DNA of 64,000 nt, from the NCBI GenBank assembly GCA_964016885.1, contig OZ024765.1:12958001-13022000 (forward strand), read 5' to 3'. Positions 6,730-61,555 of this stretch are shown here, piece by piece. A model generated the notes under the pieces. That model was given only the letters and a program-made list of their open reading frames with translations. It was not told the DNA's origin and searched no databases. Every line of letters begins with the position of its first letter. Position 1 is the first letter of the stretch. The DNA is from Eledone cirrhosa. Taxonomy: Eukaryota. A program made the translations under genes and the position numbers.

Positions 6730-7149
6730 ATATATATATATATATATATATATATATATATATATATATATATATATAAAAGTTTTTCTCAAGTTCAATT
6801 GGAGGTAGCCACAGTAAGGAAGGTACTCAATACAAAGCAGAGTATAAATATTTAATAAAGGCAAGGCCTCTACAGGACTAGAACTGTTTCATTAGGGAGA
6901 ATATATATATCAATCATCATCATCATCATCATCTATATATATATTATTTTTATTCTTTATTATTAACATTAATATAAAAGATAATTATATTTTTTTAGAG
7001 AAGGGCCTCAAATTTCATATAGCCTAGGGCCTCAGCAGGTGACAGTCTGGCCCTTGTAGATGGATAGATAAATGGATAGATAGATAAATAGGACGATAGA
7101 TAGGTAGGTAGATAGATAGATAGATAGATAAATGGGTAGATAGATAGAT

Positions 7150-9515
7150 ATGTTTCTTTATTAGCCACAGGGGCACAAAAGAAGGGGACAAATACAAAGG
7201 GGGAAGTTTACATACAATAAAAACGTAAAATATTATCACAAATGCAATTTAAAAGTTAAACGATTTCCCCCAATAGGGGGAGACAGTTCATATGGGTAAC
7301 ACATAGCCCCGAAAAAATGTGCAACCCTCATCTCCAGGAGTACGAAGAGTTTGTACACCTTTCCTCTCTTCCTCTTTTTCCTCAACCTACAGGCTGATAT
7401 AGAGAGAAGGCCCATTCACTCAGGCCATTCTCGCCACTTTCACCCACCTTAGATAGATAGATTGATAGGTAGATAGTTAGATAGATAGATTAGTAAATAC
7501 ATAGGTTGGTGGACTGAAAGATATATATATATATATATATATATATAGAGAGAGAGAGAGAGAAATATATAGATATATTGATTAAGTGATTGATTATTTA
7601 TATTGGGGGAAATATATATATTGTATTGTGGAAGTAAAAGAAAAAAACAGTAATTGATAACAGAGATGGCGTGGGCTGGACTGACAAAGGAAGGGGTCTT
7701 AAGAGGAGTAGTTGGATGGTGGGGCATGTAAGGCTGGATAATAGGGGTGGGTAAGGGAGATAACTAGGTCAATAGGAAGGAAAACAAACTTGCTGGAAGA
7801 TGACAAAGAAATAGAGAAAGAAAGAATGGCAAGGAGTTGGGGGGGGGGAGAAGTAAATAAAGAATGGTGTGAAGAGAGGGAAAGATTAGCAAGGAGAGAG
7901 GGAGAGTCAGGAGTCTGGCAGAGAGAGAGGGGGGAGACTGACAGAGGGAGAGAGAGGGAGGGAGACTGACAGAGGGAGAGAGAGGGAGAGAGACTGGAAC
8001 AGAAGAAAAGAGGGAGAAAAAGAATGGGACTGATAGAGGGGGAGAAAAAGAGAGGGAGAGACTGGTGGAAAGATAGAGATGCAGGGAAACACAAATACAG
8101 AAATAGAGAACGAATGGCCAGGTGAGAGAGAGAGATAGGGAGAAAGAGGGATAAGAGAGAGAGAGTGGGGTAGGAAGATGAACAGAGGGGGAGATGGAGA
8201 CAGAGAGGTGAAGAGGAAAGGGAGGAAGATGAAAAGGGTAAGATGGGGGAAGGAGAGAGATGGGGGAGGGGGTAGGAATATATATGAAGACAGAGGTGGA
8301 GAGGGAGGGAGAGAAGATGGAGGAGAAAGATGAAGATAAAAAGGAAGAAGAAGACAGAGAAACAAAAAGAGAGAGAGAGGAGGGTGAAGAAAATAAAGAG
8401 AGATGGAGATGAGAGAGAGAGGGGGCGAGAAATACACGGTGGTGGGGGCAGTCTAGAATAACATACAAACAGTCTGACAGAAAGACAGATAAACTGACAG
8501 ACAGACAGACTGAAAGACAAAGGAACAGGGCAGAAGAAGAGGAGGAGGGTGAGTTAAAAAGTGTACAGAAAGGGAAAGTAACATAGATAGATAGATTTCT
8601 TTATTTGCCACAAGGGCGCACAAGAAAAGGGGACAATACAAAGACATATGCCGGGGATTTTACATACAGTCGTGTAAAAAATATAAAACAAACAATTACA
8701 ACAATCGAAATCCCCAATAGGAGGGAGACGCCACAAATGGGTGGTTTAATACCCTGTAGATAGAACAACCCTCAACTTCAGGAGCGTGTTGTGCAAGTGC
8801 TCCTTTCTTCCTTTTACTCTCTTCTTTAACCTACAGGCTTATAAACAGAGAAGGCCCAATCACTCGGGTCATTTTCGCTTCATTCACCCACCTTTCAGTA
8901 AATTTACTGGGGTGCAGTGCCTCTCTCTCCACTCTGATTCTCCTTCTAAAGTGATACTTAAAGAAGGGAATCAATTGTTGTCCGGAGAGAAAGGCATCTG
9001 TCCTCAGTCCTCTCAATCTCGTCCACGATATAACCTCTTCCACCATAGCCACTAGACAGAGGAAAACCGCCTCTCTTTCGTTTTTGAAAGAGGCTGGCGG
9101 TTTGATCCTTACTAAATAGATAGATATATTTCTTTATTAGCCACAGGGGCACAAAAGAAGGGGACAAATACAAAGGGGGAAGTTTACATACAATAAAAAC
9201 GTGTAAAATGTTATCACAGATGGAATTTAAAAGTTAGTCGATTTTCCCCAATAGAGGGAGACAGTTTATATGGGTAACACATACCCCCGAAAAAAAATGT
9301 GCAACCCTCATCTCCAGGAGTACGAAGAGCTTGTACTCCTTTCCTCTCCTCCTCCTTTTCCTCAACCTACAGGCTGATATAGAGAGAAGGCCCATTCACT
9401 CGGGCCATTCTCGCCACTTTCACCCACCTTTCATAAAACTTGCTGGGGTACAGCACCTCTCTCTCCATCCTGATTCTTCTTCCAAAGTGGGATTTGAAAA
9501 AAAGAATCAGTTAGA
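7150..9515 (-). mobile_element. Cluster of three L1/Tx1-like LINE 3' ends in (GATA)n tracts (about 7150-7450, 8595-9110, 9130-9510)
   Basis: Minus frame EVISWTRLRG...FKYHFRRRIRVEREALHPSKFTERWV resembles a Tx1 ORF2 C-terminus. The 3' end is GTGGCTAATAAAGAAA followed by (TATC)n. Copies on + at 12115-12500, 22135-22217, 34635-34950 and 43015-43290. Confidence 0.65.
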
Positions 9516-9819
9516 TAGCTAGACAACAGTGAGAGAGAAAGTGTGTGCACGTGTGTGTGTGTGTGTGTGTGTGTGTGTGTGTGTGTGTGTGTGTGTGTGT
9601 GTGTGTGTGTGTGTGTGCATGTGTGTGTTTTGAAAATTTGGTTCAATGAAAAAATTTCATCTTATCACGGACAAACAGAATGTCTTTCTTTCAGACAGCA
9701 ACAGTAAGACAACAATCATAACAGCAGCAACAATAACAATAACAATCATCAAAACAACTACAGCAATATCAGTAACAACAACAACAACTAAAACATAGTG
9801 ATACAACAATCATAATAAC

Positions 9820-11015
9820 TGTTTCTATAAGGATGAAAGGCCGAGGTTAACTTTTAACCTCGACGGGATTTAAACTCGGAATGTAAAGAACCATTATAAT
9901 GCCTTCTTATATAGGCACAAGGCCAGCAATCTTTGGGGAGGGGGAAGTCTATTAAATCGACCCCAGTGCATTACTGGTACTTTATTTTATCGACCCCCGT
10001 AAGGATGAAAGGCAAAGTTAACCTCGGCGGGACTTGAACTCAGATCATAAAGGGACGTAACTCTTTGCTGTAAAGCATGGCGTCTGATGCTCTACCGAAT
10101 CTGCCAATCCACCGCCCTTAATAATAAGAGCCATAATAATAATAATAATTGTTTCTACTTTAGGCACAAGGCCAGCAATTACCCCAGTGTATTACTGGTA
10201 CTTTATTTTATCGACCCCGTAAGGATTAAAGGCAAAGTTAACCTCGTAATAATAATGCTTTCTGACTTAGACACCAGGCCAACAATTTTTGGGGAGTGGA
10301 AAATCTATTAAATCGACCCCAGTACATTACTGGTACTTTATTTTATCGACCCCGTAAGGATGAAAGGCAAAGTTAACCTCGGCGAGATTTGAACTCACAC
10401 CATAAAGGGCCATAACTCTATGCTGCAAAGCATGGTCTCCGACCCTCTTACGATACTTTCTGACTTAGACATTAGGCCAACAATTTTTGGGGAGTGGAAA
10501 ATCTATTAAATCGATCCCAGTACATTACTGGTACTTTATTTTATCGACCCCGTAAGGATGAAAGGCAAAGTTAACCTCGGCGAGATTTGAACTCACACCA
10601 TAAAGGGCCATAACTCTATGCTGCAAAGCATGGTGTCCGACCCTCTTACGATACTTTCTGACTTAGATACAAGGCCAATAATTTTGGAGGAGGGAAACGT
10701 CAATTAAATCGACCCCAGTACATTACTGGTACTTTATTTTATCAATCCCATTTAAACTCAGAATGTAAAGAGATGTAACTATATACTGCAAAGCAGTTTG
10801 TCGGACGCTCTAACGATTCTGTAATCCGCTGCCATAAATATTGGCACAAGGCCAGCAATTATCCCAGTGTATTACTGGTATTTTATTTTATCAACCCCCG
10901 TAAGGATGAAAGGCAAATTTAACCTCGGTGGGATTTGAACTCAGACAACAAAGGGCTGTAACTCTTTGCTGCAAAGCATGGGGCCCGACTCTCTACCGAT
11001 TCTGCCGAACCACCG
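9820..11015 (-). mobile_element. Array of about 7 co-oriented SINE family A copies, including a 198-bp tandem unit
   Basis: Repeated GTAAGGATGAAAGGCAAAGTTAACCTCGGCGAGATTTGAACTC. TCTGACTTAGA recurs at about 10261, 10459 and 10657. Confidence 0.85.
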
Positions 11016-59840: not shown

Positions 59841-60954
59841 TTATATATATATATATATATATATATATATATATATATATATATATATATTTTCTCGTCT
59901 ACTTATATATATATATATATATATATATATATGTATGTATATATATATATATATATGTATGTATATATATATATATATATATATATGTATATATGTATGT
60001 ATATATGTATGTATATATGTATGTATATATGTATGTATATATGTATGTATATATATATGTATATATGTATGTATATATATATATGTATATATATATGTAT
60101 ATATATATGTATATATATATGTATATATATATATATGTATGTATATGTATATATGTATGTATATATGTATATATGTATGTATATATGTGTATATATATAT
60201 ATATGTATATATGTATGTATATATATATGTATGTATGTATATATATATATGTATATATGTATGTGTATATATATATATATATATATATATACACATGTAT
60301 GTATATATATATATATATATATCCACATGTATATATATATATATATACACACATGTATATATATATATATATATATACACATATATATATATATATATAT
60401 ATATATATATATATATATATATATATATATATACACACACACATGTATGTATATATACATACATGTATGTGTGTGTATATAATTTGTGTCCCATGCCTGT
60501 TATATTGTGTCTAATGAAAATGTGTGGGTATAAACCGGATACTAAGATTTAAAATAATAATAAAAATAATGACAATAATTTGGATAATATTTTAAGTAAA
60601 CATGAGAAATGTGCTTGCTGTACATTATCATTGTAAATATCACTACTGTATATAGTGTCTCCCTTTCTCCTTTGCCTCCTTACTCCTGGGTGGATCATGG
60701 GGTCAAGGTCTTCAGTCACACCTTCCAACTGACCGTATCATCATCATCATCATCATCATCATCGTTTAACGTCTATCTTCCATGCTAACATGGGTTTAGA
60801 CGGGAATTGTCCCACTTGAGGCAAGATTGGTTGGGTCACCGTGTCTCGCTCGTATAGCACTGTATATATATGTATATATATATATATATATATATATTTC
60901 GTTTCTGAATTTGTTTAGCAAGATTCTTTATCTGAAATCGTGTGTTGAAACCAA

Positions 60955-61393
60955 TATTGTTATACTTTGGGAGGGTCATGTTGCCAATAAGAAACACACG
61001 CACCAGTTGCTTTCACTTCAATTTAATTTATTATATATTTATAAATTTACAAATTTATAAATTTCTGGTTGGTTGGTTGGTTCCACAACCAGATAGTTGT
61101 TTATATATATATAGTCATAGTTCTTTCGTCACACACTCTGTGACCTCATCAGTGACTGGGGATTTCTTTCTTCGTTTCTGTGCCTTTCCTTTCCACTGAT
61201 GAGGTCACAGAGTGTGTGACGAAAGAACTATGACTATATATATATAAACAACTATCTGGTTGTGGAACCAACCAACCAACCAGAAATTTATAAATTTGTA
61301 AATTTATAAATATATAATAAATTAAATTGAAGTGAAAGCAACTGGTGCGTGTGTTTCTTATTGGCAACATGACCCTCCCAAAGTATAACAATA
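60955..61393. repeat. About 200-bp-arm inverted repeat with a 40-bp spacer
   Basis: 60955-61154 is the reverse complement of 61194-61393. The right end abuts (TA)n. Confidence 0.95.
61113..61157 (-). ncRNA. Minimal type I hammerhead ribozyme
   Basis: Minus strand AGTCA CTGATGA G GTCACA GAGTG TGTGAC GAAA GAAC TA TGACT. The mirror copy at 61194-61235 lacks most of the 5' strand of stem I. Confidence 0.75.
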
Positions 61394-61555
61394 TATATAT
61401 ATATATATATATATATATATATATATATAACGAAGGAAATGTGGTAAGGAACCAGGTGGACCATAACGCACCAAAGTACTCAATACTTGGGGTAGTAGAG
61501 TGGGTAAAGTAATTAAGTCAAATATTTAAGATTTGGCTTCGTTTATTAAAGATGT

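Follow-up and report, generated by a model that had tools for sequence, protein, structure and literature searches.

Penelope-like elements (PLEs) of the Hydra clade, which carry a C-terminal endonuclease (EN), insert into (TA)n targets and have a canonical hammerhead ribozyme near their 3′ end (PMC8557442). Here we describe a bulged hairpin, with the consensus RCWC-[helix]-UU bulge-GWGY-RC, that lies 25-60 nt 3′ of same-strand hammerheads in copies that are probably of this type in Eledone cirrhosa. The copies occur in a stretch of 64,000 nucleotides (GenBank assembly GCA_964016885.1, contig OZ024765.1, positions 12,958,001 to 13,022,000 of the forward strand), referred to below as the window.

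The element class, its hammerheads, inverted units, tails and TA targeting are already known. Head-to-head pseudo-long-terminal-repeat insertions with an optional 30-40 bp tail (PMC3846280, PMC8969392) share the insertion anatomy described here, and minimal PLE hammerheads (PMC4209133) share the palindromic stem III. The parts of these three papers available to us give no sequence or structure rule for the placement of short and long ends. The terms ‘hairpin’ and ‘stem-loop’ are absent from the main text of PMC8557442.

Poseidon PAc, from Anolis carolinensis, starts reverse transcription internally, at two sites that lie 3′ of the hammerhead and delimit the tail. It cuts and extends both strands of an AT-rich target, uncleaved RNA serves as template, and the protein has been modelled as a dimer (PMC11167929). 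PAc starts in an AC-rich stem-loop within its open reading frame (ORF), and the available parts of that paper describe no conserved repeated motif. In contrast, the proposed landmarks described here are a single covarying hairpin present twice in a leader that is non-coding, and the ends fall 5′ of each copy.

Two further groups were considered and set aside. Non-LTR retrozymes are short, non-coding and PLE-linked and have type I hammerheads, as do the window copies (PMC7229834; bioRxiv 10.64898/2026.07.22.740005). They are defined as tandem repeats that each contain a complete type I hammerhead (bioRxiv 10.64898/2026.07.22.740005), whereas the window copies are dispersed truncated or inverted units, with no tandem complete-hammerhead unit among them in the 150 of 184 entries listed. 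Naiad elements have an N-terminal EN and no canonical hammerhead (PMC8557442); the ORFs linked to the hairpin have a C-terminal EN and canonical hammerheads.

Comparison of sequences identifies the motif as a bulged hairpin conserved in Hydra-clade PLEs, where it occurs twice in the 5′ leader. It is fairly probable that it acts as an RNA landmark for reverse transcriptase (RT) start sites about 7-8 nt upstream of each copy. In the literature searched, we found no description of the hairpin, its duplication or its end offset, and we regard it as a structural cis-element not described before in this known retroelement clade; one RNA fold (PMC11167929, Fig. S2C) could bear on this. New here are the tandem pair before the ATG and the ties of short ends to copy 1 and of long ends to copy 2.

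Hairpins and hammerheads in the window

A preliminary description of the window had quoted seven hairpins, and all seven were found exactly as placed or a few bases off (23780 +, 61501 −, 36938 +, 40255 −, 6843 −, 40491 + and 47601 +). The strict pattern ACTCT-N2-30-TATTGAGT has nine sites in the window, compared with a mean of 0.09 and a maximum of 2 in 100 local dinucleotide shuffles. Two of these exact sites, 23939 − and 36206 +, are beyond the seven quoted. A structure-aware search added two variants, 16831 + (C-G closing pair) and 39648 + (UA bulge), for 11 sites. The inner helix is paired over at least 3 bp at every site except 36206, where it is deleted.

We also searched with a covariance model, R1, built solely from 41 sequences from outside the window. 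It matched 11 window places at E <0.02, comprising ten of the 11 sites and a doubtful place at 6370; the long-helix copy at 47601 was not recovered in this search. An unrelated 25-bit match in locus L003 indicates that lone matches at E ~1e-4 can be chance, and window matches at E 0.001-0.02 thus rest on their context too. No Rfam family came near its gathering score for the hairpin (best E 0.26). Among the best 150 of 330 Rfam matches to the whole window, nearly all were sub-threshold matches of microsatellites to microRNA models.

Alignment of the flanks divides the tails into six groups, A-F (z at least 6 within groups and at most 2.6 between them). The suggestion that the hairpins belong to unrelated families is therefore borne out at flank level, though four sites are family A and three are family B.

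A same-strand type I hammerhead, represented by at least its 3′ half (GAAA, self-complementary stem III and UH), has its cut 20-70 nt upstream of nine of the 11 sites, or ten if AAAA is allowed. The same criterion is satisfied at 5% of random positions (11% when relaxed) and at 1/11 sites on the mirrored strand (2/11 when relaxed), so the hairpin is not independent of hammerhead position and orientation. The hammerhead at 36938 has a mutated GAAA, and an intact CUGANGA core is present only at 16831, 47601 and 61501. The association claimed in the preliminary description thus stands, although its count of six in seven was too low, as all seven carry at least a 3′ half. (TA)n lies 46-89 nt 3′ of ten of the 11 hairpins, and short arms adjoin TA or AT-rich sequence. 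The units and related features in the window are:

6370 to 6393, plus strand: doubtful hairpin, E 0.0014, without RC after the stem; no hammerhead half found
6779 to 6900, minus strand: family B long arm with hammerhead 3′ half (cut 6871), hairpin 6843-6825, 46-nt tail and (TA)n 6730-6778
16717 to 16912, plus strand: family E long arm, absent from the preliminary description, with a full hammerhead that has its core at 16725 and its cut after 16773, then hairpin 16831-16850 (C-G closing pair, E 0.001) and 62-nt tail
23642 to 23851, plus strand: family A head-to-head insertion whose inverted short arm has its outer end at 23642 (6 nt short of the hairpin) and whose long arm comprises a hammerhead 3′ half (cut after 23754), the hairpin and a tail
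23780 to 23803, plus strand: bulged hairpin, family A, model E 4.8e-6
23852 to 23867, no strand: (TA)n common to two independent family A insertions, tail to tail
23868 to 24055, minus strand: second family A unit with tail, hairpin 23939-23916, hammerhead 3′ half (cut 23968) and inverted short arm that ends at 24055, 5 nt short of the hairpin
23916 to 23939, minus strand: bulged hairpin, family A, model E 9.5e-7
24362 to 24619, no strand: head-to-head pair related to family E, both arms short, without hairpin
36167 to 36268, plus strand: very short family A unit with short arm, hairpin 36206-36221 (E 0.018) and tail running into another repeat; arm limits set by eye
36888 to 37005, plus strand: family B long arm with the 3′ half of a degenerate hammerhead (cut after 36907), then hairpin 36938-36957, 48-nt tail and (TA)n from 37006
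39418 to 39729, plus strand: family F unit, absent from the preliminary description, with an inverted short arm that stops at 39418 (5 nt short), a degenerate hammerhead (cut after 39590), the hairpin 39648-39672 (UA bulge, E 0.007) and a 57-nt tail
40200 to 40335, minus strand: family B long arm with one-mismatch hammerhead (core 40327, cut 40289), hairpin 40255-40236 and tail fused to another repeat
40420 to 40588, plus strand: family C long arm with 5′-truncated hammerhead (cut after 40456), hairpin 40491-40512 and tail
47430 to 47692, plus strand: family D long arm with long-stem-II hammerhead (core 47439, cut after 47540), long-helix hairpin 47601-47634 and 58-nt tail to (TA)n at 47693
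61430 to 61613, minus strand: long arm with full hammerhead (core 61605, cut 61561), 59-nt spacer, hairpin and 48-nt family A tail, bounded by (TA)n 61391-61429
61478 to 61501, minus strand: bulged hairpin with family A tail on a different hammerhead body

The copies are likely 5′-truncated insertions of at least six Hydra-clade-type families. The anatomy of EN-bearing PLEs, with 5′ truncation, an adjacent inverted copy and a tail on one arm, is seen at 23642-23851, 23868-24055 and 39418-39729; 24362-24619 is the exception. Degenerate family B pieces lie at 1-77, 34530-34600 (−) and 63130-63220 (−); at 34564 the 3′ edge of the hairpin is exactly where a hammerhead with an intact core meets an inverted tail fragment. 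In an inverted unit at 16505-16650, the minus strand has a candidate long-helix GCTC/GAGC hairpin (16526-16595, E 2.1) ending 35 nt from (TA)n.

Fold and occurrence in Hydra-clade elements

We compared 53 distinct hairpins, a set that omits L067 as a tandem-repeat chance match and in which L048 and L049 are the same contig. The shared fold comprises RCWC, a Y-R closing pair, a variable helix of 2-9 bp, a 2-nt 3′ bulge (UU in 52), GWGY and RC. Inner length ranges from 8 to 24 nt, changes are compensatory and the bulge is one-sided. The pair at the foot of the stem is G-C in 42 hairpins, A-U in 10 and G-U in 1, and base pair 3 has one A-U in place of U-A. The closing pair is U-A in 49 and C-G in 4. 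Inner pair 2 is A-U (34), G-C (14), U-A (2), G-U (2) or C-G (1), and inner pair 3 is mainly C-G (32) or G-C (13). The window copies differ from the other Hydra-type loci in their A-U foot and in their longer tails (46-76 nt, vs mostly 29-53 nt elsewhere).

In an alignment of 41 rows, five of eight pairs vary on both sides, covering 44 cells, a result reached in 0 of 500 shuffles. The rows are interrelated and were pre-selected for pairing, so percent paired is no evidence, and one row (L159) is mis-specified. Unselected cases anchored on protein for these reasons weigh more.

Six new Hydra-clade consensi are given in the supplement of PMC8557442. By eye, the hairpin is present in Hydra-2_Amil (coral) and Hydra-2_Ajap (sea cucumber), at the 3′ end, 38-43 nt past the hammerhead cut and with G-C in place of A-U at the base. 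The published Hydra-1_Ajap consensus opens with two copies at its 5′ end. Of the remaining consensi, one has a diverged copy (sea louse) and one a doubtful copy; the octopus consensus Hydra-1_Obim has no clear copy by eye.

A metagenome scan for both hairpin ends and (TA)6, which required neither inner pairing nor a hammerhead, identified 121 loci from 23 of 64 collection parts, with 122 matches, 53 of them paired at the free positions. Among metagenome matches with at least 110 nt upstream, a hammerhead precedes 17/34 paired and 4/65 unpaired matches. Viral matches (31 hits, 32 matches) served as a negative control; none of the 32 has a hammerhead, and no Hydra ORF was found in the viral contigs. 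In L134 (181-338), a hairpin, ~12 nt, a hammerhead and another hairpin form a miniature tandem unit.

Locus L103 encodes a Hydra-type endonuclease ORF directly 5′ of a hammerhead and hairpin, with the RT part inverted. The named relatives of this ORF are coral proteins, and their alignment shows the clade-defining motifs. Across L103, the coral alignment and L153-L161, the hairpin-linked ORFs outside the window carry RWK, DKT, CxCX5C, CxxC and CxH. Pfam models do not recognise Hydra proteins, and no solved relative was found.

We also ran the test in reverse, selecting loci by Hydra protein and not by motif. This gave ten loci (L153-L162), on contigs in several bacterial metagenome-assembled genomes (MAGs); these contigs contain animal-type retroelements and microsatellites and are probably host DNA. 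Two of them are uninformative: L154, which stops within the hammerhead, and L162, a weak match. The hairpin follows the ORF in six of the eight informative loci, including versions with GCAC/GUGC and C-G replacements. Of the other two, L155 ends short and L160 has none at its ORF-linked 3′ end. The hairpin, which the preliminary description had proposed to seek in autonomous elements, is thus present in Hydra-clade elements, in the coral and sea-cucumber consensi as well as in ORF-linked loci.

The shortness of the motif, and the fact that the aligned rows were selected and related, speak for a chance feature or for one ordinary repeat inherited without structural constraint. We regard this explanation as scarcely credible and largely refuted. 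The excess over shuffled sequence, the six flank-unrelated families, the enrichment of hammerheads upstream of paired matches and the compensatory changes in the protein-anchored set all argue against it.

Since the window contains no ORF, we infer the clade of its copies from the hairpin, hammerhead spacing, end geometry and TA flanks. These copies share with the Hydra clade a sense-strand hammerhead near the 3′ end (9-10 of 11, with three full cores) and insertion at (TA)n.

Other hammerhead families, without the hairpin, occur in L155 and L161 and at 61152/61196 in the window. The last is a TA-flanked head-to-head pair at 60898-61390 (cores 61152 − and 61196 +), with a relative at 35835-36076. 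Its hammerhead lies ~170 nt from the short end, and its minus-arm tail of ~55 nt has no RCWC hairpin. As this family has a tail without the motif, the hairpin is not universal to PLEs.

Insertion ends and the paired leader hairpins

The hairpin belongs to the 5′ untranslated region (UTR), where it occurs twice; at 3′ ends it is confined to the long arm. The order in a unit is first hairpin (HP1), 30-60 nt, second hairpin (HP2), 15-35 nt, ATG, RT/EN ORF, 3′ UTR, hammerhead, 25-60 nt and the next HP1. Two tandem hairpins are present at all four intact 5′ ends (MAG loci L153, L159 and L160; metagenome locus L131), with one mismatch in the first copy of L160.

In these four loci HP2 lies 15-35 nt before the ATG, and after hammerhead cleavage both hairpins would, judging from the anatomy, fall in an uncapped 5′ leader. 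The hairpins could on these grounds mainly control translation or packaging, as an operator for the element's own protein near the ATG or by cap-independent initiation on hammerhead-cut RNA, with end positions as a side effect of bound protein. This is improbable as the main function: alone it leaves the fixed end offset and the UA patch described below unexplained. It is compatible with a role as a landmark for RT.

An inverted partner arm was found in the same locus for 11 of the 74 hairpins analysed. Ten of these partners end 4-6 nt short of the first base of the hairpin, three of them in the window. The long arms of L153 and L159, loci with both a 5′ leader and a 3′ end, stop 4 nt before HP2 begins. 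Both ends fall just 5′ of a hairpin copy, and the one-sided Penelope ‘tail’ thus corresponds to the HP1-to-HP2 interval.

A UAU/AUA patch occupies positions −8 to −5. Of 51 hairpins, 43% have a TAT/ATA that begins at −8 and 39% one that begins at −7, compared with a background of at most 10% at −15 to −30. Six of eight TA-followed junctions fit a single first templated position of −7/−8, with TA microhomology allowed. The other two fall at −9 and −12; one of these compares two family B copies and is no true end. The cross-locus end scan was filtered against a low-complexity seed (L035).

Reads from E. cirrhosa show the same switch point. In 29 contigs, the 61501 body gives way to a terminal (TA)n ~3 nt ahead of the hairpin. 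The family A tail at 61431-61507 is ~100x deeper in reads than the upstream body of 61501, and 9,739 reads continue into the 23780-type body. Different hammerhead bodies share the family A tail, with the switch 4-6 nt before the hairpin.

TA runs also occur 4-5 nt ahead of a hairpin, either within the collinear leader of L131 (300-434) or where a solo tail or full element has its 5′ boundary. (TA)n precedes the hairpin at 2990-3060 in L038 and is at the hairpin itself at 2885 in L159, where the element begins at HP1. Hammerhead-bearing short ends without a hairpin stop 35-50 nt past the cut in (TA)n at 23530-23628 (+), 34325-34430 (−) and 41790-41900 (−).

The main rival to a role at the RNA level is that the GIY-YIG endonuclease reads the hairpin in DNA, either in single-stranded complementary DNA (cDNA) or in an extruded resident copy, and cuts the TA patch 5-8 nt upstream. 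Short and long ends would then be trimmed or cut ends and not RT starts. The positions of the TA runs, exactly at −4/−5 in L131 and L038, the start of L159 at HP1, and the joining of one abundant family A tail to different bodies at the same point are consistent with such cutting. The tail has been ascribed to EN-mediated resolution (PMC8557442), and the EN of Drosophila virilis is cited as requiring the tail for recognition (PMC11167929). We nevertheless consider this unlikely. The variable inner length, compensatory changes and one-sided bulge fit single-stranded folding over duplex recognition, and PAc ends coincide with RT starts in vitro (PMC11167929). Variation within E. cirrhosa points the same way: among the variants listed for the family A hairpin in reads, three are in the loop, one is in the bulge and one is at a stem position, 61500, where the variant (~10% of reads) gives U-G on the sense strand.

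The fixed distance of the UA patch, the (TA)9 between tail and HP2 in the otherwise collinear L131 and the sister relationship of PLE RTs to telomerase RT (PMC8557442) suggest a third alternative, in which the hairpin bounds a tiny UA template that is copied repeatedly, so that part of the flanking (TA)n would be the element's own product. We judge this very unlikely. Both ends of L157 lie in (TATG)n with no TA run, and the short arm of 23939 has only ATAT; TA addition is therefore not obligatory.

The window has 37% G+C and is rich in microsatellites and fragments of long interspersed elements (LINEs). A non-LTR RT fragment with zf-RVT at 26709-28933 has a motif that we take to be Dong/R4-like. 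LINE 3′ fragments at 32492-33358 (+) and 59005-59898 (−), presumably RTE-type, encode a PHD finger ahead of the RT C-terminal region. Long tandem arrays occupy 17690-21380, 30030-31384 and 55081-56510, with periods of 36 nt, 76 nt and 44/88 nt.

A possible role in RT start-site choice

The preliminary description had proposed that the families share the motif as a cis signal for the RT or endonuclease that mobilises them. The hammerhead-linked position, covariation, presence in autonomous elements and fixed end offset support such a signal, for which protein binding is predicted.

RNA stems bound by an RT fix the template a few nt away in two well-known cases, the telomerase template boundary element and hepadnaviral epsilon, the latter a bulged hairpin. 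The hairpin described here has no sequence or family match to either and differs in its tandem copies and target-DNA primer; the likeness is an analogy only.

We consider it fairly probable that each hairpin is a landmark bound by protein and positions one RT start. The RT-endonuclease protein, probably a dimer as modelled for Poseidon PAc, would bind the two hairpins on uncut tandem (or circular) RNA and cut both strands of a (TA)n target. Each target 3′ end would then anneal to the UA patch beside one hairpin and be extended by copying back across the hammerhead. The outcome would be a head-to-head insertion with one short and one long arm, in which the extra ‘tail’ is HP1 plus the spacer. 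In its boldest form, somewhat less likely than even, the scheme is a two-hairpin ruler: the two subunits of a dimeric telomerase-related RT would hold one hairpin each, base-pair a cut (TA)n end with the adjacent UA patch and begin synthesis there.

Several observations weigh against a landmark role in RNA or against parts of this scheme. The window has no ORF remnant (best profile match E 0.028), and HP2 was not seen in E. cirrhosa reads. The HP2 rule for long ends comes from two loci. The partner arm in L110 diverges at −65, the pair 24460/24521 (24362-24619) has two short arms, and L160 lacks a hairpin at its ORF-linked 3′ end. In L131 and L038, where there is no matching short arm, (TA)n sits directly 4-5 nt before the hairpin; a cut in DNA would explain this too. 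Folding energy gives no strand preference (sense lower in 26/53). Finally, PAc starts inside its AC-rich stem-loop, not beside one (PMC11167929).

How Penelope RTs choose their start sites, and how inverted one-tailed insertions arise, is a question two decades old, and in vitro work covers a single element. Because both ends lie at a fixed offset from a short covarying motif, direct predictions follow: the cDNA start should follow a hairpin that is moved, deleted or swapped. For structural studies of the retroelements most closely related to telomerase, the hairpin offers a minimal RNA, and it may also provide a compact handle for RNA-templated insertion at TA repeats. Annotators can use it to recognise and delimit Hydra-type fragments that lack an ORF; this 64-kb window has at least 11. 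If the two-hairpin ruler is true, one rule would account for head-to-head insertion, the one-sided tail and TA preference, and the hairpin would be a retroelement counterpart of the telomerase template-boundary element across cnidarian, echinoderm and, probably, mollusc hosts.

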